Part shown: positions 1 through 9,002 of the stretch, one piece after another
How the letters are laid out: each line of letters starts with the position of its first letter
How positions within the stretch are numbered: the stretch's first letter is position 1
Origin: a virus
DNA length: 64,000 nucleotides
IMG/VR virus record: IMGVR_UViG_3300032805_000001
Span: 1 to 64,000 of that record
Strand: one strand, 5' to 3'
Program-made: the position numbers and the translations under genes
Notes under the pieces: generated by a model
What the model was told of the DNA's origin: nothing
What the model saw: the letters and a program-made list of their open reading frames with translations, nothing else
Databases searched by the model: none

Positions 1-1286
1 TGCGGGATTATCTGTGGCGGGAGATCGCCAAGTGGGCGAACTGTCTCGACTTCGGTAAGATCGGCCGGCCGCCGTTCAATCCTCGTGGCGAGCTTATGAA
101 GACTGGGCTGAGTCTCCGCCATGGTCTCGCTCTGGCTTCGTCACCTGACACTCCCGCCAAGATCGAGGGTGTTCACGGGGATTCGGTGCTGGCGGTCCTC
201 GACGAGGCGAAGATTATCTCCCCGGAGACTTTCGACAGTATCGAGGGTGCGTTCTCCGGTTCCGGGGAAGGGTCTGACCTGGAGGCTTACGCTCTGTGTA
301 TTTCGACTCCGGGTGAGCCGTCGGGGCGTTTCTATGACATTCACAAGCGGGTGCCGGGACTGGAGGACTGGCATATCCGGCATGTCACCCTTGATGAGGC
401 GGTAGCCGCTGGGCGGATGACCCGGACGTGGGTTGAGCAGCGGAAGAAGTTGTGGGGCGAGACTTCCGCCCTGTTCCAGAATCATGTTCTGGGTGAGTTC
501 TGCGCCGACGACGAGGATGCCATCATTCCCCTTTCCTGGGTTGAGGCTGCGGTGACCCGGTGGCGGGAATGGGACGCGGACGGCCGTCCTGACCCGCAGG
601 GGCCCCGCGTCGCCGGTGTCGACGTGGCTACCACAGGCAAGGACCACACCGCCGTCGCCACGCGCTACGGTGACGTGATCATCGGTATCAGGACGTGGGC
701 CAGGGCTGACACGATGGAGACCGCCGGCCGTGTCAGGCAGGTTCTTGACGCAGATCCGGAGATCACCGCGATCGTTGACTCCAGGGGGGTCGGTTCCGGG
801 ACTTACCATCGGCTCCGGGAGATGGGATGCCGGGTTGACCCGTTCGATTCGAGCGCGAAGGCTACCCGGCGGGATCGTACGGGCCAGTTGTCGTTCAAGA
901 ATCTCCGGGCCGCGGCCTGGTGGCATTGCCGGGATCTGCTGGACCCTTCCGCTGGTGCCGCCCTGGCGCTTCCGCCGGATGACGAGCTGATCGGTGACCT
1001 GACGTGTGTGCATAAGAAGATCCTCAGCGACGGGAAGATCCTGGCTGAGCTGAAAGACGACGTGCGGAAGCGGATCGGGCGTTCCACGGACAAAGGTGAC
1101 GCTGTAGTGATGGCCCTGTGGGCGGCGCAGGGGTCATGGATGGACGCTTACCGCACTACGGGGAACTGTGAGCATTGCGGGCTCTGGTTCCGGCCTGACC
1201 TGCCGGACGGGTCGGCGCGGACGCATTGCCCCCGCTGCCGTAAGCGTCTGGAAGTCCCGGGAGACGGCGAAGATGAGGCTGCCTGA
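1..1286 (+). CDS. Terminase large subunit (5' end lies outside the window)
   Basis: Walker B-like AVLDEA, coupling motif ISTP, RNase H-like nuclease motifs AGVDVA...DHTA and STDKGDA; C-terminal CxxC...CxxC zinc ribbon; upstream of portal. Frame appears open upstream of the 96 ATG. Confidence 0.9.
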   Translation, partial: RDYLWREIAKWANCLDFGKIGRPPFNPRGELMKTGLSLRHGLALASSPDTPAKIEGVHGDSVLAVLDEAKIISPETFDSIEGAFSGSGEGSDLEAYALCISTPGEPSGRFYDIHKRVPGLEDWHIRHVTLDEAVAAGRMTRTWVEQRKKLWGETSALFQNHVLGEFCADDEDAIIPLSWVEAAVTRWREWDADGRPDPQGPRVAGVDVATTGKDHTAVATRYGDVIIGIRTWARADTMETAGRVRQVLDADPEITAIVDSRGVGSGTYHRLREMGCRVDPFDSSAKATRRDRTGQLSFKNLRAAAWWHCRDLLDPSAGAALALPPDDELIGDLTCVHKKILSDGKILAELKDDVRKRIGRSTDKGDAVVMALWAAQGSWMDAYRTTGNCEHCGLWFRPDLPDGSARTHCPRCRKRLEVPGDGEDEAA

Positions 1287-1323
1287 CAGAAAACGTGGTG
1301 CGGTCTAACTTACAATGGCGGGT

Positions 1324-1980
1324 ATGGCTGCCATGTACGGGAAGATGATGAGATGGGAACTGCCGCACCTCATCGCGCAGGTCAGGTCGGTATGTGAGAT
1401 CACCGCGGACGGCTGCTGGCTGTGGCGTTACGGAGCGTGGAAAGACCGGCACCTCATCGGCGAGCGCCCGTACCCGCGGATCATGATCGCTGGCGAGCGT
1501 CATTTCGTCGCGCACTGGGTTCTTGTCGCGAGCGGCCAGCCCCGCCGCGCCGGGATGGAACCATGCCATAGCTGCGACAGGCCACCCTGCTGCTGTCCCG
1601 CTCACCTGCACTGGGGTACCCATCAGGTGAACATGGCGGAGATGGGTACCCGGCGGCGCGCGGGTGCTCAGCGGCACCCGGAGCGGATGCAGCGCGGCGA
1701 TGACCACTGGATGCGGCGCACCCCGGAGCGGAAGGTGTACGGCCCGCGCCCCGGGAACTACGCGCACGGCGACAATCACTGGACCCGCCGGGAACCGGAG
1801 TCGATATCGTGGGCCGGCACCGCCCATCACATGGCGAGGCTTGACGAGGGCAAGGTCCGGATGATCCGGTCCGACGCGGCAGCCGGGAGGAAGCCGGGTG
1901 CCATCGCGGCGGCGCTTGGCGTCGGTGAGACCACCGTCCGGGCTGTCCTGAACGGCCGCACCTGGAAGCATGTGACCTGA
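1324..1980 (+). CDS. HNH homing-type endonuclease with C-terminal HTH
   Basis: CWLW...HSCDRPPCCCPAHLHWGTHQVN HNH motif; repeated GDxHWxRRxPE; TACAAT (1311-1316) 7 nt before ATG 1324 suggests a leaderless start. Confidence 0.85.
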   Translation: MAAMYGKMMRWELPHLIAQVRSVCEITADGCWLWRYGAWKDRHLIGERPYPRIMIAGERHFVAHWVLVASGQPRRAGMEPCHSCDRPPCCCPAHLHWGTHQVNMAEMGTRRRAGAQRHPERMQRGDDHWMRRTPERKVYGPRPGNYAHGDNHWTRREPESISWAGTAHHMARLDEGKVRMIRSDAAAGRKPGAIAAALGVGETTVRAVLNGRTWKHVT

Positions 1981-2026
1981 GCCGGGAAGCGAAGCGGTGT
2001 AACGGCGCTGTGTTACGTTTGGGCTC

Positions 2027-2914
2027 ATGCCGGTCAACATCAGCAATCCGGGGCTTCTGAAGATCGCCCGCCGGATAATGAGCGAGCCGTGGTTCAGTTA
2101 CGATCCCCGGGACATGGAACGCGCGTTCCGCCAGTGGACTGAGGTTACGACACCTGAGCAGCGGGAGATCGCTCAGAGGGTGTTCTTCTATCGGTTGCTG
2201 GAAGACCTGCGTGCGGAAAAGTGGCGCCCCGCTGAGGTCGCCGCGCCCGGACGGCCCAGGATTGTGCCCGGCCGCGTGACGGAAGACAGCACCCCGCCGG
2301 GGCGGGATACTGCGACCCCGCCGCCTGTTGCGGCGCTGAAGTTCAGGAGCCAGTCTTCTGACTGGCCCAAGGAGGAGGAGCCGCCACCCCTGGCCGCGCC
2401 GGCCGCGCCGCAGCAGGCACCTGCGGCGTCTCTGGCACCGGCAGCCGCTGCCAGCACGGGCAGCACGGGCAGCACGGAGTGGCCGGCGGTGAAACGTACG
2501 ATCCCGCCGTCACCTCCCGCCCCCGTGGCCCAGCCGTCCCGTAAGATCGCCGGATATCAGCAGATGTACCCCGAACTTTCCCGGTCGTGGGAAGCCGCTT
2601 CGGGTGAGAGGAAAACGCTCGCGGACTTCGACGAGCGTGACATCCGGTACCGGGACAGGCAGCTCAGCGGGCAGCAGCAGTTGTGGCGGACCGAGAACGC
2701 GGGTGACGAGGAGCGTATCGAGGGCCGTGAGCGCCGCAACGCTCAGGATCGGGTGCGGATCGCGCAGCGGGCGCAGGGTATCCGTGATCTGGAAGCGGAA
2801 AGGGAACGGCTGGCAGCCGCCGGGCAGGAAATGGCTGAGCATGGCTGTGCCACGATCGGTGAGCTTCCCCCTGAGGCTCTCACCGCGTGCGGTTTCCGCA
2901 GGCATGTAGCATGA
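2027..2914 (+). CDS. Hypothetical protein (Pro/Ala linker, C-terminal coiled coil), translationally coupled to the Tas-like gene
   Basis: 295 aa ORF; TACGTT (2014-2019) 7 nt before ATG; stop overlaps next ATG (ATGA 2911-2914). Confidence 0.65.
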   Translation: MPVNISNPGLLKIARRIMSEPWFSYDPRDMERAFRQWTEVTTPEQREIAQRVFFYRLLEDLRAEKWRPAEVAAPGRPRIVPGRVTEDSTPPGRDTATPPPVAALKFRSQSSDWPKEEEPPPLAAPAAPQQAPAASLAPAAAASTGSTGSTEWPAVKRTIPPSPPAPVAQPSRKIAGYQQMYPELSRSWEAASGERKTLADFDERDIRYRDRQLSGQQQLWRTENAGDEERIEGRERRNAQDRVRIAQRAQGIRDLEAERERLAAAGQEMAEHGCATIGELPPEALTACGFRRHVA

Positions 2915-4053
2915 CCGCCGGAGACCCCCTCAGTGACCAAACCGGAAGCGTTGCCCAGTCACCAGTCGTCACTGAGGGTCAGGACTCCCCGCAGGCCACA
3001 GCAGGCGCGGCACCCACTCGCCCGGCGCCTGCGGGGGACAAGACCAGCCGCAGCCAAAGGACATCCGGCACCCAGGCGCCCAACGCTGCGGCTGATGACT
3101 CCTCCGGCGGCCACAAGCATGCCGGCGCCCAGGGATGCCGCGCCGCCGGAGGGCAAGCACCCCCACCCGCCACATCCTCTTCGGTGCTGTCGGCGTGGCC
3201 GGAAGAACTCGGCCGTGACCTCGCCGCCGCCGCCGACACCCTCTGGGACATCGAACGCCTCCGCATCGCGAGCGAGAACCGGCTCCGCCAGTTCACACGC
3301 GGCATCGGCGAAGCCGACAAAGACGGGCGGAAACGGGGATTCGGGTGGGATCTCCGCTCACCAGCCGTGGCCACGCTCGCCGCGATCACCGGGCACATGC
3401 TGTGCGACTCCACCGTCGTCAGGGAAACACTCGGCGACGAGAAACCAGCCAGGCATAAAGGCTGCTGTCTTGAACACGACGCTGAACGGAACCTGACCCG
3501 GGCGCTCCGCGCGCACCCGCTCGGCCCATGGGTACGGGAACGCAAAGGCGCTGGGGAGAAACAAGGCGGCCGGCTCATCGCCGTGATCGGTGACCCGTAC
3601 ATGCGGCCCCCGATCCTCCTCGAGGATGGTTCCTGGGACCCGGCGAGACCGCGTACCGTCGCGGAACTATGGGCCTACTGCGGTCTCAAACCAGGGCAGA
3701 AACGTAAGCGGGGAGAGAAAGCCAACTGGTCCGCCGCCGCCAAAATGCGCGCATGGAATATCGCCGGGTCCATGCTGAAAGCCGGCAACCGTGAACTGTA
3801 CGACAAGCGCAAGGCTGCCACCGAAGGCCGCGCCCACAGCGGGGAATGCGTGCGCTGCGGCCCGTCCGGCAAGCCCGCGCAGCCGGGGACGCCGTGGAGT
3901 GACGGGCACCGGCACGCTGACGCGCTGCGGATAGTGTCCAAGGAAGTCCTGAAAGACTTGTGGCGTGAAGCCCGGCGCATCCACGAGGAAACTCCCGTCA
4001 GTGGCCACGGAGCCGGCGTCTCCCAAAGACGGTGCGCCGCTGACGGGCACTAG
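2911..4053 (+). CDS. TasA-like Nop-domain RNA-guided DNA-binding protein (IS110 C-terminal/Nop fold, no nuclease domain)
   Basis: Coiled coil DIERLRIASENRL, then HPLGPW..KGAGEKQGGRLIAVIGD, LWAYCGL, YDKRK, HRHADALRIVSKEVLKDLW typical of IS110/Nop RNA-binding region; no RuvC (DEDD) or HNH domain seen; surrounded by dual-spacer hairpin units. Alternative start GTG 3184. Confidence 0.8.
   Translation: MTAGDPLSDQTGSVAQSPVVTEGQDSPQATAGAAPTRPAPAGDKTSRSQRTSGTQAPNAAADDSSGGHKHAGAQGCRAAGGQAPPPATSSSVLSAWPEELGRDLAAAADTLWDIERLRIASENRLRQFTRGIGEADKDGRKRGFGWDLRSPAVATLAAITGHMLCDSTVVRETLGDEKPARHKGCCLEHDAERNLTRALRAHPLGPWVRERKGAGEKQGGRLIAVIGDPYMRPPILLEDGSWDPARPRTVAELWAYCGLKPGQKRKRGEKANWSAAAKMRAWNIAGSMLKAGNRELYDKRKAATEGRAHSGECVRCGPSGKPAQPGTPWSDGHRHADALRIVSKEVLKDLWREARRIHEETPVSGHGAGVSQRRCAADGH
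2923..3152 (+). ncRNA. TIGR-like stem-loop guide array, units 1-4
   Basis: Four hairpins (2923-2980, 2986-3038, 3045-3094, 3101-3152), each stem-CCA-N9-CG-N4-CCA-N9-CG-stem. Spacers A/B: AACCGGAAG/GTCACCAGT, CAGCAGGCG/CTCGCCCGG, AAGGACATC/GGCGCCCAA, CAAGCATGC/GGGATGCCG. Confidence 0.88.
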
Positions 4054-4248
4054 AAGGAATCCCCGTCAGCGGCCAAAGCGTAACCGTCGCCCATGCTCAG
4101 TGCGCCGCTGACGGGGGCTAGAAGAAACTCCCGTCAGCGGCCATGACGCAGGCGCCTCCCACCCAGCGACCGCCGCTGACGGGGACTAGCCGATCCAGCC
4201 CGGCCATCATCGGGGCGTTACTCCAAAGGAAACGCGCCGGGCTGGATC
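3994..4248 (+). ncRNA. TIGR-like stem-loop guide array, units 5-8
   Basis: Units 3994-4047, 4061-4116, 4130-4183, 4192-4248 with the same grammar. Spacers CGGAGCCGG/AAGACGGTG, AAGCGTAAC/TGCTCAGTG, TGACGCAGG/CCCAGCGAC, TCATCGGGG/AAGGAAACG (unit 8 has a 5-nt loop). Confidence 0.9.
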
Positions 4249-4285
4249 ACCTTGCGCCCCTCGACGAGCTGGGAAGCGAGGCGGC

Positions 4286-4732
4286 GTGACCCATCCCGGC
4301 GTCCCCACCTCGCCCGGCGTTCCCGTGTTCGAGCACGCCGCCCAGGAGGCTATCCGCCAGGCCCGGTCGCGTGTGGAGGCCTTCACCCGCCCCCGGCCGA
4401 TCCTCACCCCCGAGGAACGCGAGGATGCTCTCAAACGCGCTGAGGAGGGTGAGACCTGCCGGTTCTGCGCGGGGTTTCACCCTGGCGCGTCCACTCCCGC
4501 GTGCCCCCGGCTGGCGACGTTCGAGCTCAACGGCGACGGCCAGGTGGTCAAGGGGTCGTTCTGGCCTGAGGGGATCACGGACGCGGCGGTGGAATTGGAC
4601 GGGGAGGGGGCGGTGCGGGCGGTGACATTCCACCGGAACGACCAGTGGGACACGAGCCAGATCGTGCGGGCCGCCGATGCCGCGGAGGAAGAGGACGGCG
4701 GCTCCGCGGAGGTTTCCGTGGGGCATCCTTGA
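4286..4732 (+). CDS. Hypothetical protein, possible Zn-binding (CxxC..H..C)
   Basis: 148 aa ORF with GC3-rich codon usage and GAGG upstream. Confidence 0.6.
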   Translation: MTHPGVPTSPGVPVFEHAAQEAIRQARSRVEAFTRPRPILTPEEREDALKRAEEGETCRFCAGFHPGASTPACPRLATFELNGDGQVVKGSFWPEGITDAAVELDGEGAVRAVTFHRNDQWDTSQIVRAADAAEEEDGGSAEVSVGHP

Positions 4733-4735
4733 CCG

Positions 4736-4924
4736 GTGAGCATCGAGGATGGCATCAGGATCGGTGACCCCATCAGGGTCACGATAACCGGGTACGCCGG
4801 TGACGGGTTCAGCGGGACATCAGGCTCGGAAAATGCAGCAGAGAAGTTCATCAGGCTGGACTACGGCCGCGAGAGCGCGTACATCGCCTGCGAGCAGCCT
4901 GGTGTGACAATCACGAAGGTCTGA
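4736..4924 (+). CDS. Small hypothetical protein
   Basis: 62 aa ORF filling the gap before the portal. Confidence 0.45.
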   Translation: MSIEDGIRIGDPIRVTITGYAGDGFSGTSGSENAAEKFIRLDYGRESAYIACEQPGVTITKV

Positions 4925-4949
4925 ACCTGCGCGAGGGCGGTGATCCGTC

Positions 4950-7900
4950 ATCGCGAGCCCAGCCGCCATCCTCCGCGCATCGAAAGCGGCCCCTGGCGGC
5001 GCGCGGCCGACGCCTGCCCCGCAGGGTCCGGGTATCGGGCAGATCAGCCCGCTCGCTGCCCAGCTAGCGAACGAGTCTGGTTACGCGAACGCCTACGGCC
5101 CGTTCCTGCCGCGTCCGGCCCGGACGTTCACTGAGGGTGCGTTCGGCCCGTTCAGCCCGATCCTCCCGGTCCCGGTTGATTCGCCGCCGCCGGGTGGTGA
5201 TCTGCCGGATCCGCGGCTGTGGCAGGGTCCGGTCGGCTGGAACCTGCCGACTCAGCCTGGCAGTGAGGGCATCAAGCTGGCGTCGTTCGCCACTTTGAAG
5301 ACTCTCGCTGACACCTACAGTGTGGCCAGGACGTGCATTGAGCGCCGCAAGTATGAGATCGCCGGCCTGGACTGGGACATTGTGCCCACACGTGAGGCCA
5401 GTAAGGCGTATCAGGGTGATCACGATGCGATGCGGGATTTTGGTGAGCGCCGCGCGCAAGCCGTGAAGTTTTTCCGGCAGCCTGACCCGGACTTTTTCTC
5501 CTTCTCCGGGTTCCTGAAGGCCGCGCTTGAGGACGTGTTCGTGTTCGACGCGCTGTCGGTCCTGATGAAGCCGAAGCGGGGCCGGGGTTTGCGGCGGGGG
5601 CTGCTCGGGTCGGATCTGGACTGCCTGAACCTGATCGACGGGCAGACGTGCCGTCCGCTGATCGGTTTGCATGGGGAGGTGCCGCGGCCGCCGGCGCCGT
5701 ACATTCAGCAGTACCTGTTCGGGGTGCCCCGGTCGGATTTCCCGGCGATGATGACGGGCCGTGACATTGAGGAAGCGGGCCTGAAGGGTGCTGAGGCGGG
5801 GTCGTTTTCCGTTGATCAGATGCTGTACCTGCCGATTGTGCCGCGCCGTCAGACACCGTACGGGTTCAGTGCGACGGAACAGGCGCTGATCGTCATCATG
5901 ACGGGTCTGCGGAAGCAGGCGTATCAGCTTGAGTACTACTCCGAGGGCACCGTCCCGGCTGTTTACATCAGTCCCGGGGATGTAAACATCACCCCGAATC
6001 AGGTCCGGGAACTGCAGGATGCGCTGAACGCTTACGCGAATGATCAGGCGTGGCATCACAAGGTGATCGTCCTGCCGCCAGGCTCCCGGGTGGATCCGCA
6101 AAGGCCTCAGGACCTCGCGGACCAGTTCGACGAGATCATCATGACCGAGGTCGCGATGGTCTACGACGTCGACCCGATGAGCCTGGGTATCATCCCGAAG
6201 GTTTCGACGGTCGCGTCGCCGTTCGCGGCCCGGGAGATGGCGCAAGCGTCCCGCACGGTTCATGACCGGACGTCGACGAAACCGCTGCTGAAATTCCTGT
6301 GCGATATTTTCAACACGATCCTGCACCGTGTCTGCGGCCAGGACGACATGAAGTTCACGTTCGCCGGGATGGACGAGGCGCAGGACCAGGCGGCGCAGAC
6401 GGATCTGCTGGTCAAGCAGGTCCAGAACGGTATCCGGTCTGTTGATGAGGCCCGTGAGGAACTGGAGCTGACCCCGTGGGGGCTGCCGGAAACTTCCGGG
6501 CCGGTGGTGTTCACCCAGATGGGTGTGGCGCCGTTCGAGTGGATGCCGGGGGCGGCGATCGAGGAGGCTTCCAGCGGCGGCGCCTACTCCGGTGACGATG
6601 AAACCCCGCAGGATGAGGGGGCCGCGCAAGCGTCGGGGACGGCGACACAGCCGAGGGGTGTGCATCACCCGCCGAGCTCACGTCCGGTCGGCACCCACAA
6701 CCCGCGTCTCGGGCTGCCGTCGGGGGGGACGAGGCTGCACGCGGAAACCCCGCCGGAACGGGCGGGGCGGATGGGCCGCACCCCGGCGCATTCAGCGGCG
6801 GTGGGTGCGCACGGGACGACCCGGCAGGGGAAAGCTGTCAAGGCGGAACTGGAAGCCCTGGCCCGGCATCTGCGGAAAGGCCGGGACATCGGCACGTGGC
6901 GGGCGGAACACATTCCCGGTACGGTCCTCGCTGTCGTCGCGGAGGATCTCACCAAGGGGCTGACCGCTGATGAGGCGGTCGCGTCCGCGATGACGGTGGT
7001 GCTCCCAAAAGCGGCGTACGAGTGGGCGGAGAAGGCTAACCCGCCGCAGCAGGGCAGCAGCCAGCAGCAGCAGTCCGCTCAGCAGGCCCAGCAGCTTGCC
7101 CGCACGTACGCGCAGCGGATCCGGGCCGCGTTCACCGCGGTTGCGAAGGCGGCGCTGCGGCTGATCCGCATGTGGCTGACGGGTGCGCTCGCGGTGACCG
7201 CGCTCGCTTTGGCGGGGATGATCGCGGAACTGATCCGCAAGCATCTCACCCCGGTCCTGGCTGCGTTGTGGCGGGAAGCGTGGCATCTGGGCGCGGCGAC
7301 CGCTGAGGCGGTGATCCGCGACGAGGAACCAGACTGGAAAGGCTGGGAGCCTGGCAGTACCGCCGCGGCGGGCAAGCCGGCGGCGATGGACGCCTGGGTC
7401 GCCTCCCATGGCCGGGACGTGATCGAGGGCATCACCACCACCCGCATCCCGGACCTGGCGGACGCGCTCACCAGGGCCGCAGCGGCGGGGGAGAGCGCGG
7501 AGACGATCGCCGCCACCATCGCGGTCGTGCTCGGGTTCGATCAGCGCGCCGACCTGATCGCGGTGACGGAAACGGAGCGGGGCAAGAACGGCGGCATGAC
7601 CGACACGTACCGGCTCGCCGGGGTCATGCAGAAGCAATGGGTCACCATGCACGACGGCAAGGTGTGCGGCACCTGCCGGGCGAATGAGGCGCAGGGCTGG
7701 ATCGTCTTTGACGCGCCGTTCCAGAGCGGCAACCTTGCCCCCCCTAACCATCCGCGCTGCAGGTGCCATCTGTCCGCCCGGCTGGCCCCGGCCGCCGCGA
7801 AGAAGTACGCCCGCGCTGTCGGTGTGAACGGGCAGGAGTATTGGCCGGCTGACAGCTACGCCCGTGGCACCGCGCCGGGCTCGGGCGGTCCCATGCCCAC

Positions 7901-8981
7901 CATCCACGACGCCGACGGCATCCAGATCGGCATCGCCGGTGGTGTGCCGGGGGCGACGGCTGGCGGGGAACCGCCACGCTGGGACGGGGACGAGGCCCCG
8001 CACATCGTGACCGCCACCCCCCGCAGTGACGCGGAGGGGCGCGGGAACGTCCAGACGTACGGTGGCGGCAGCACCGGCGCCCCATACCGGGACCGCAGCG
8101 GCGAAACCCACGTGGGTGAGCCGCTCGATGCCGACGACGCGGACTGGCCGGAACATCGCGGTATACCGCCGAGGCCGGGACGGGACTGGCCCGCCCCGTA
8201 CATGGACGGCTACTGGCCGGCGGGGGGTCACGGGACCGGGCAGGCACCCGGCAGCCCGGTCGTGGGCGGGGAACGGGGCAGGCCGCCGAACGCGGTCGGG
8301 AAGAACGCCGCCGACCTGTCCGACCCGAACCCGGTCGAGTGGCCTCACGTGCAGGCCCTCATGGAGAAAAACTTCCCCGAGGACGTCCTTACCTGGGTGA
8401 AGGACGCGCACTGGATCGGCCCGGTTGAGGTGCCTCAGGACCGGATCGACACCTCCGATGAAGACTCGTGGGCGGCTTCGCATGAGCCGGAGGCGGTGCG
8501 CCGGTTCGCGCGGGACATCAAACGCGGCACCGGGCACACGCATCCGGTGATCCTTGTCCAGTCCCCGGAGGACAGCAAGGCCGTTGTGATCGACGGGCAT
8601 CACCGGACTCTCGCCTACCGGAAGCTGGGCCGGCCGGTGAAGGCGTACGTCGGGATGGTTGACAAGATCACCCCGGCGATGCTGGAAACGCACACGCGCC
8701 AGATTCATCAGGGTGCCGATCCGGCGAACAAGGCGGCCCGTGGCCGTACCGCTGCGGAAGTGCTCCGCGAGTACTGGACCCATGAAGGGCATCCCGGGCC
8801 GACACGGTACGCGCTCGAGCAGAAAATCCGCTGGGGCCAGCCGGATGACTGGTACCGGTGCGTGGATGAGCTGACGCCCTACGTCGGCGGTGAGGGTGCC
8901 AAGGGGTACTGTAATTTGCGCCACAAAGAGGTACTGGGTTACTACCCGGCGCAACATGCCGAGATGGAACGCGGTAAGTAG
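4950..8981 (+). CDS. Portal protein fused to MuF-like minor head domain, ParB-like domain and C-terminal head-associated domain
   Basis: Portal motifs (ARTCIERRK, PYGFS..EQAL, YYSEGTVP); MuF motif KQW..DGKVCGTC...PPNHPRCRC; ParB-like VILV...VIDGHHR; frame open from 4944 with probable ATC start at 4950 (ORF caller starts at 5295). Confidence 0.85.
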   Translation: MASPAAILRASKAAPGGARPTPAPQGPGIGQISPLAAQLANESGYANAYGPFLPRPARTFTEGAFGPFSPILPVPVDSPPPGGDLPDPRLWQGPVGWNLPTQPGSEGIKLASFATLKTLADTYSVARTCIERRKYEIAGLDWDIVPTREASKAYQGDHDAMRDFGERRAQAVKFFRQPDPDFFSFSGFLKAALEDVFVFDALSVLMKPKRGRGLRRGLLGSDLDCLNLIDGQTCRPLIGLHGEVPRPPAPYIQQYLFGVPRSDFPAMMTGRDIEEAGLKGAEAGSFSVDQMLYLPIVPRRQTPYGFSATEQALIVIMTGLRKQAYQLEYYSEGTVPAVYISPGDVNITPNQVRELQDALNAYANDQAWHHKVIVLPPGSRVDPQRPQDLADQFDEIIMTEVAMVYDVDPMSLGIIPKVSTVASPFAAREMAQASRTVHDRTSTKPLLKFLCDIFNTILHRVCGQDDMKFTFAGMDEAQDQAAQTDLLVKQVQNGIRSVDEAREELELTPWGLPETSGPVVFTQMGVAPFEWMPGAAIEEASSGGAYSGDDETPQDEGAAQASGTATQPRGVHHPPSSRPVGTHNPRLGLPSGGTRLHAETPPERAGRMGRTPAHSAAVGAHGTTRQGKAVKAELEALARHLRKGRDIGTWRAEHIPGTVLAVVAEDLTKGLTADEAVASAMTVVLPKAAYEWAEKANPPQQGSSQQQQSAQQAQQLARTYAQRIRAAFTAVAKAALRLIRMWLTGALAVTALALAGMIAELIRKHLTPVLAALWREAWHLGAATAEAVIRDEEPDWKGWEPGSTAAAGKPAAMDAWVASHGRDVIEGITTTRIPDLADALTRAAAAGESAETIAATIAVVLGFDQRADLIAVTETERGKNGGMTDTYRLAGVMQKQWVTMHDGKVCGTCRANEAQGWIVFDAPFQSGNLAPPNHPRCRCHLSARLAPAAAKKYARAVGVNGQEYWPADSYARGTAPGSGGPMPTIHDADGIQIGIAGGVPGATAGGEPPRWDGDEAPHIVTATPRSDAEGRGNVQTYGGGSTGAPYRDRSGETHVGEPLDADDADWPEHRGIPPRPGRDWPAPYMDGYWPAGGHGTGQAPGSPVVGGERGRPPNAVGKNAADLSDPNPVEWPHVQALMEKNFPEDVLTWVKDAHWIGPVEVPQDRIDTSDEDSWAASHEPEAVRRFARDIKRGTGHTHPVILVQSPEDSKAVVIDGHHRTLAYRKLGRPVKAYVGMVDKITPAMLETHTRQIHQGADPANKAARGRTAAEVLREYWTHEGHPGPTRYALEQKIRWGQPDDWYRCVDELTPYVGGEGAKGYCNLRHKEVLGYYPAQHAEMERGK

Positions 8982-9002
8982 CGAAGTTCCGGTTTTCCAC
9001 CT

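Follow-up and report, generated by a model that had tools for sequence, protein, structure and literature searches.

Guide hairpins within the predicted reading frame of a phage tasA gene, with frame and codon-phase statistics from homologous loci

TIGR-Tas systems form a young family of compact RNA-guided DNA binders that are free of a protospacer-adjacent motif (PAM). For the systems with stem-loop arrays, Xu et al. (bioRxiv 10.64898/2026.09.09.750476) describe units that lie upstream, downstream or inside the coding sequence with the gene's frame left intact, in disordered regions, and suggest a link between the maturation of the guides (tigRNAs) and Tas translation. According to the same preprint, TasA of the stem-loop type binds DNA and represses transcription, and intragenic tigRNAs of BlTasA (Bifidobacterium longum) are seen by small-RNA sequencing, with co-transcription and internal promoters both left open as their source. 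Stem-loop arrays are also described in Faure et al. (Science 2025, PMC12045711). Here we analyzed a 64,000-nt stretch of a virus sequence (positions 1 to 64,000 of IMG/VR record IMGVR_UViG_3300032805_000001, hereafter the window), in which an initial annotation had placed guide hairpins inside the reading frame of their own effector gene. The feature is real and was correctly described, and it is an instance of the arrangement already published. Our best explanation, to which we assign a probability of about 75%, is a phage stem-loop TIGR-TasA system with five of its eight guide units inside the tasA frame, on DNA under a dual constraint. Four units would lie in a disordered N-terminal extension of ~90 residues and one in a disordered C-terminal tail, as judged from the protein model. 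The doubly used DNA would satisfy a grammar at the RNA level, with a stem and two copies of CCA-N9-CG, and at the same time a rule at the coding level, with stops absent and only two codon phases in use.

To locate the units we used a detector that follows the grammar given for stem-loop TIGR units in the methods of Xu et al. It found eight hairpins spanning 2927-4248, all on the + strand, with stems of 10-14 bp and loops of 30 nt (31 nt in unit 8). Every one of them reads CCA-N9-CG, N4 (N5 in unit 8), CCA-N9-CG, counting the closing C-G pair. The gene and the units are given below in window positions; the codon phase of a unit is the codon position of its box C 'CA' relative to the gene frame.

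2911-4053, + strand: tasA open reading frame (ORF), long form, 380 codons plus TAG; alternative upstream start GTG 2887
3184-3993, + strand: conserved TasA core (coiled coil and a domain like Nop and the IS110 C-terminal domain), from homologue alignment, AlphaFold 2 (AF2), Foldseek and phmmer
2927-2978, + strand: tigRNA unit 1, codon phase 0, 11-bp stem
2986-3037, + strand: tigRNA unit 2, codon phase 2, 11-bp stem
3045-3094, + strand: tigRNA unit 3, codon phase 0, 10-bp stem
3100-3153, + strand: tigRNA unit 4, codon phase 0, 12-bp stem
3994-4047, + strand: tigRNA unit 5, codon phase 0, 12-bp stem including one U.G pair
4060-4117, + strand: tigRNA unit 6, past the tasA stop, codon phase 2
4129-4184, + strand: tigRNA unit 7, past the tasA stop, codon phase 1
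4192-4248, + strand: tigRNA unit 8, past the tasA stop, codon phase 1, unique stem, 5-nt linker (31-nt loop)

In an alignment of the eight stems, 80 of 80 cells are paired and both sides have changed at 8 of the 10 stem positions. None of 500 shuffles matched this pairing and covariation, and pairing fell to 27-59% when the partner column was slid. Against dinucleotide shuffles, the fold z-scores are -3.4 (5' array) and -7.7 (3' array). The hairpins are thus real, since the pairing, covariation and fold tests exclude chance. The stems of units 1-4 and 8 all differ from one another; units 5-7 have one stem in common and recur with a 68-nt period. Units are spaced 56-60 nt apart, with linkers of 6-10 nt. 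The linker after each of units 5, 6 and 7 contains CTAG (4048-4056, 4118-4124 and 4185-4191), the first of which supplies the tasA stop codon. Within unit 2 (2996-3036), spacer A almost copies the unit's own 5' stem, so that its composite target matches its own locus at one mismatch. We searched for targets of the composite 18-mers, in both possible geometries, across the surrounding contig (120,103 bp, phage-like, 66.8% GC, from a wetland metagenome); apart from overlaps with the units themselves, all matches in these 120,103 bp had at least three mismatches.

The encoded protein was compared with known structures. In phmmer searches against PDB it matched TasR (chain 9mty_A, E 1.6e-8), in an alignment that begins at chain residue 154, past the TasR RuvC domain, and TasH (21kl_A, E 2e-6). 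The AF2 model of residues 92-380 has a mean predicted local distance difference test score (pLDDT) of 89.3, and in Foldseek searches of PDB it has only TasR and TasH at ranks 1-10 (E 1.2e-7 to 3.2e-5, probability 1.00), with weak matches to the IS110 recombinases ISCro4 and IS621 coming next (E 5e-3 to 2.5e-2). No Pfam family was matched at E<=0.1, and the one PHROG family matched is labelled 'transposase'. RuvC and HNH nuclease domains are absent from the predicted protein, which on sequence and modelled structure is a TasA, that is, a nuclease-less Tas of the stem-loop TIGR array type. By analogy, its predicted function would be the binding of 18 bp of DNA through dual 9-nt spacers, leading to repression and not to cutting. 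The assignment of the hairpins as guide units of a TIGR-Tas system is supported at the level of sequence. In the full-length model, pLDDT is <50 at residues 1-90 and 364-380, so the parts encoded by the units are predicted to be disordered. Within the core, His218, Cys222, Cys225 and His242 (HxxxCxxC...H; window 3835-3909) are invariant in 35 aligned homologues, a pattern suggestive of a short zinc-binding insert within the C-terminal domain.

At the 5' end of the gene, ATG 2911-2913 overlaps TGA 2912-2914 of the upstream ORF (2027-2914) as ATGA. The tasA frame is stop-free from 2875 to TAG 4051-4053, and its in-frame starts are only GTG 2887, ATG 2911 and GTG 3184. Counted from ATG 2911, units 1-4 correspond to codons 6-81 of the 380-codon ORF and unit 5 to codons ~362-379, or about 18 of the final 19 codons ahead of TAG 4051. 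These positions agree with those of the initial annotation, which had named the ATGA-coupled start at 2911, put units 1-4 in the first ~80 codons and put unit 5 near the end. Sequences resembling a Shine-Dalgarno (SD) site precede both upstream starts (GAGG 10 nt ahead of 2887, AGG 8 nt ahead of 2911), and no purine-rich SD run lies upstream of GTG 3184. GTG 2887, which the initial annotation had not named, is equivalent to the ATG used in a relative that is 87% identical (locus L010). At the other end, the conserved C-terminal helix ends near 3991 and the first stop is at 4051, which makes the 3' overlap unavoidable.

To ask whether homologous loci keep the array in frame, a check put forward with the initial annotation, we gathered 183 related loci and scanned them together with the window (184 loci). 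Contig scans for relatives had found none with a single-protein query and 15 with an alignment-based query. Of the 920 units detected in the 184 loci, 911 share the strand of the gene and 9 are opposite to it. Thirteen loci were excluded (one without a tblastn match to the core, the others aligned past core residue 30 or on the opposite strand), and the 171 loci with the N-terminal part of the core aligned formed 124 clusters at 85% protein identity. An array lies directly upstream in 101 of the 124 representatives, units lie within the core region in 56 and downstream in 41. Excluding 23 of the 124 that have no proximal upstream unit and two whose array touches a contig end left 99 representatives, in which we counted the stops in each frame from the first unit to the conserved core.

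The upstream array is stop-free in the gene frame in 77 of these 99 loci, versus 22 for frame +1 and 12 for frame +2, and the stops add up to 50, 149 and 263 in the three frames. An in-frame start upstream of the array is present in 74 of the 99. Of 659 spacer pairs from the representatives, 653 are distinct; the spacers are therefore essentially independent, and stop avoidance must be renewed in each lineage. That new spacers must avoid in-frame stops had been proposed from the window itself, and it follows from this family-wide maintenance of the frame. For 35 of the 77 open loci, no ATG, GTG or TTG occurs between the last unit and the core, and translation is obligatory for at least one whole unit in 22 of the 77 and for at least part of one in 45. 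A short start is present in 20 of the 22 interrupted loci. One relative that is 77% identical (L011) has no start after position 1713 and its core at 2001, so at least four of its units must be translated. In L010, the four upstream stems and their phases are kept, all eight upstream spacers differ, and there is no stop. A comparison of window 2927-3153 with L010 1190-1416 displays 9-nt spacers replaced block-wise in a fixed scaffold.

The codon phases of the units provide a second line of evidence. Counts for phases 0/1/2 by location are as follows.

5' end, in the ORF: 171/7/168
Internal to the core: 94/0/2
3' end, in the ORF: 32/0/6
Upstream, outside the ORF: 51/52/35
Downstream, outside the ORF: 13/10/16

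Overall, units in the ORF divide 297/7/176; were stop avoidance the only factor, the proportions would be 0.36/0.27/0.36 (chi2 206). That expectation derives from the out-of-ORF units, of which 77% lack a stop in a phase 0 reading, 58% in phase 1 and 77% in phase 2. Intrinsic stop content thus fails to explain the phase bias. In the position matrix and the amino-acid composition by phase, both restricted to units with 4-nt linkers, the stems have a 3-nt periodicity (C at -9, -6 and -3; G at +34, +37 and +40) and are flanked by A/C-rich linkers. The peptides encoded in phase 0 are rich in Gly/Ala/Ser/Asp/His/Gln, those in phase 2 in Pro/Ala/Ser/Thr, and those in phase 1 contain 29% Arg and 19% Pro. 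The excluded third phase would therefore yield an Arg/Pro-rich peptide, and the pattern says that unit-encoded peptides have apparently been selected to be harmless. Because the box C motifs stand 18 nt apart in a 30-nt loop, both arms and both boxes of a unit fall in one phase. In the window, the units in the ORF have phases 0, 2, 0, 0 and 0, and those past the stop 2, 1 and 1. Units inside the conserved core, as in Gordonia phage LonelyBoi (L001, 2074-2185), are one or two in number and are inserted after the ELWAYCGL motif (alignment columns ~420-485); 94 of these 96 units are in phase 0, and none occurs in the window.

Because stop-free arrays are concentrated in the gene frame, because the phases are biased and because some loci have no short start, translation through the array is, on this evidence, selected across the family, and probably here as well. 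For this locus, the open frame, the coupled start, the four allowed phases and the family proportions make the long form, starting at 2911 or 2887, highly probable in our judgment.

How the embedded units are expressed is a separate matter. Under our preferred explanation, translation would start at 2911 (or 2887) and one sense transcript would serve as both mRNA and guide precursor, in which case each excised 5' unit would destroy a message. The guides probably derive from this sense transcript: nearly all units lie on one strand, the linkers are short, and the stop-start coupling goes with the lack of a consensus promoter. No sigma-70-like promoter was found in 1200-5400, using an E. coli-type consensus that is weak for an actinobacterial phage; together with the ATGA overlap, this fits co-transcription. 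The initial annotation had gone further and suggested a built-in negative feedback, a reasonable conjecture that has already been voiced in print. We regard feedback through TasA-dependent processing as possible and somewhat doubtful. The enzyme that processes stem-loop tigRNAs is possibly a host RNase (Xu et al., Discussion), which would make any feedback independent of the TasA protein. A further and equally tentative reading is that embedded arrays are dual-coding, with guide and effector output coupled stoichiometrically and antagonistically in a self-limiting circuit of ribonucleoprotein assembly. The tigRNA scaffold (GNC-periodic stems, a 30-nt loop, box C 'CA' 18 nt apart) would then be readable in exactly two benign phases and block replacement of 9-nt spacers would preserve the frame. 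In such a circuit the 5' units would be excised from the sole transcript able to make full-length TasA, and the processed, leader-shortened mRNA might still be translated from GTG 3184.

The strongest alternative, itself on the doubtful side, concerns the mechanics of expression: ribosomes on the array would couple tasA to the upstream gene and shield C-rich RNA from Rho-dependent termination or decay, and host RNases would process the guides independently of TasA. The ATGA coupling and the A/C-rich linkers flanking the stems are consistent with this, and the peptides do resemble neutral disordered filler. Nothing argues directly against it; even so, intergenic and post-stop arrays work without translation, and shielding explains the internal (wedge-loop) units of 56 of the 124 homologous loci no better than its alternative does. 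As a rationale for translating the array, shielding or coupling fits equally well as feedback.

Several observations weigh against an array translated as part of tasA, and most of them could instead be read as signs of a short gene. In that case translation would begin at GTG 3184, units 1-4 would belong to a structured leader at the 5' end or to guide RNA transcribed separately, and an upstream frame of 91 codons would be open by chance at 67% GC. At this locus frame +1 is likewise stop-free across the 5' array (0/0/5 stops by frame), as are several minus-strand frames, and the codon-position GC is flat in 2911-3183 (0.70/0.73/0.70) vs 0.69/0.54/0.77 in the core. The local open frame thus proves nothing, and the caution that came with the initial annotation, that such a frame can arise by chance at this GC, was well placed. 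Homologues align just from about residue 102-104 of the long form, some close ones are called short (290-298 aa), and the short start GTG 3184 is kept in L010. In 22 of the 99 loci, including Bethlehem-type mycobacteriophages, the array lies outside the ORF, so embedding is not obligatory; in Bethlehem (L003), gp71 (1483-2190) begins at the equivalent position and the array (1154-1455) is intergenic. With single-linkage clusters at 60% identity (18 usable), the stop-free counts are 11/6/1, so that the direction is kept with low power; at 50% identity (five usable clusters) they are 2/0/0. Finally, the CUU processing motif, which Xu et al. report as frequent and not as defining for stem-loop tigRNAs, is absent from all eight units (searched as CTT at the 5' stem base in a 10-nt window, 6 nt upstream plus 4 nt into the stem). 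Stem bases here read AC/TCCC, and CTT is present in 163 of 657 units of the homologues.

The short gene is nevertheless improbable. GTG 3184 lacks an SD-like purine run, while 2887 and 2911 have GAGG and AGG and 2911 is stop-start coupled. Frame and phase are under selection across the family, and L011 has no short start from which such a gene could be made. Each upstream unit of the window sits in an allowed phase (0, 2, 0, 0), and the same phases recur in L010 although its spacers have all been replaced.

Slightly less probable still is transcription of the intragenic units from internal promoters, by which guides would not consume mRNA. This source is left open by Xu et al. in their Discussion. 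Against it, the promoter scan of 1200-5400 was negative, which is weak evidence, the spacing and linkers of the units leave little room for promoters, and 911 of 920 units are on the sense strand. Least credible by a wide margin are hairpins that are not guides and serve as DNA-level sites (cruciforms, recombination ends) of a degenerate IS110-like element or as repetitive extragenic palindromic (REP)-like repeats: homologues are called 'transposase' by PHROG and RefSeq and fold like the IS110 C-terminal domain, but the DEDD/RuvC domain is absent, the nearest structures are TasR and TasH, the units match the published tigRNA grammar exactly, and the single U.G pair is tolerated on + strand RNA only. 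The hypervariable spacers in a fixed scaffold and the 911:9 strand bias count against this reading as well, and REP-like repeats were rejected.

The TIGR-TasA locus lies between the terminase and HNH genes on one side and the portal gene on the other, tightly packed with co-oriented late structural genes (window 1-9000):

3-1286, co-oriented with tasA: large terminase
1315-1980, co-oriented with tasA: HNH endonuclease
2027-2914, + strand: ORF upstream of tasA, its stop overlapping ATG 2911
4286-4732, co-oriented with tasA: small ORF
5295-8981, co-oriented with tasA: portal

The ORF at 2027-2914 matched neither a Pfam nor a PHROG family, and no acquisition gene is evident near the array. Rfam searches over 2000-5000 returned just two sub-threshold chance matches, and megablast of window 1-8000 against phage records gave no match. 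In four DNA contig sets that we compared, we found identical or strain-variant contigs plus assembly breaks. In three sibling metagenome runs, contigs of identical sequence begin or end at 2988, 3362, 3563 and 3580, all within the array or the gene. Short divergent contigs also map to window 2988-3580, which suggests strain variation around the array.

The protein database held 1503 relatives of TasA. Homologues in actinophages come from 90 phage records, 83 of them Mycobacterium phages, and are annotated as hypothetical protein, transposase or DNA-binding protein. The homologues of Mycobacterium and Gordonia phages sit elsewhere in the genome, among early or regulatory genes (beside Cro, excise, helicase and exonuclease). 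Under the labels 'transposase', 'DNA binding protein' or 'hypothetical', Cluster-A-type mycobacteriophages have genes for TasA homologues with an intergenic upstream stem-loop array, so that the system has been missed by public annotation.

The central idea is already in print, and the value of this analysis lies in confirmation, statistics and a test system, not in discovery. Counts taken over this locus and its relatives show that an array inside a tas gene is constrained as coding sequence as well as RNA. This affects gene calling, as many homologues are called at 254-499 aa or labelled 'transposase', and it affects engineering, in which spacers in embedded units need to avoid stops and hold phase. 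Culturable actinophages offer a system for testing the coupling of mRNA and guides: Mycobacterium phage Rich gp50 and Gordonia phage LonelyBoi gp46 have in-ORF arrays, and Bethlehem gp71 has an intergenic one.

A full-text literature search for 'tigRNA' with 'intragenic' returned the preprint of Xu et al. alone, and one for 'TIGR-Tas' with 'mycobacteriophage' returned Faure et al. (PMC12045711) alone, in which the term occurs once, in the reference list. Two better-known kinds of system resemble the locus in part. Like CRISPR (mini-)arrays in phages, it has tandem units, hypervariable short guides, a fixed scaffold and an adjoining effector gene. CRISPR-Cas was rejected, as only units 5-7 have a common stem, the spacers are split 9+9 and the array lies within an ORF; scans of four ORFs (Pfam, PHROG) yielded no Cas family. 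With the IS110/IS621 bridge-RNA recombinases it has in common a related C-terminal domain fold (ISCro4 E 4.9e-3, IS621 1.7e-2, TM ~0.43). Unlike them, it has neither a DEDD RuvC-like domain nor a bridge RNA with target and donor loops. An IS110 recombinase was rejected because Pfam Transposase_20 and DEDD_Tnp_IS110 were not matched at E<=0.1 and the structured part begins with a coiled coil.

Closer are the dual-repeat systems of TasR and TasH (PMC12045711; PDB 9mty, 9vzx, 21kl), with which the locus shares a homologous Nop-type domain, dual 9-nt spacers and box C/D-like flanks. In contrast to these, it is without RuvC or HNH, variable palindromic stems take the place of the conserved edge repeats and a 4-nt linker that of the loop repeat, and its guides are probably longer than 36 nt. 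Closest of all is the stem-loop TIGR-TasA of Xu et al., likewise a nuclease-less Tas with hairpins that contain two box C...box D intervals. The window displays the in-frame intragenic array described there, with a frame open over 2875-4050, ends predicted to be disordered and translation predicted. It differs from the wedge-loop units of that work in embedding its units at the 5' and 3' ends of the gene. The main text of Xu et al. uses 'codon' for start and stop codons only, and the frame statistics and the phase rule appear not to be part of it; the codon-phase rule would thus be a modest addition to the published description of stem-loop TIGR-TasA.

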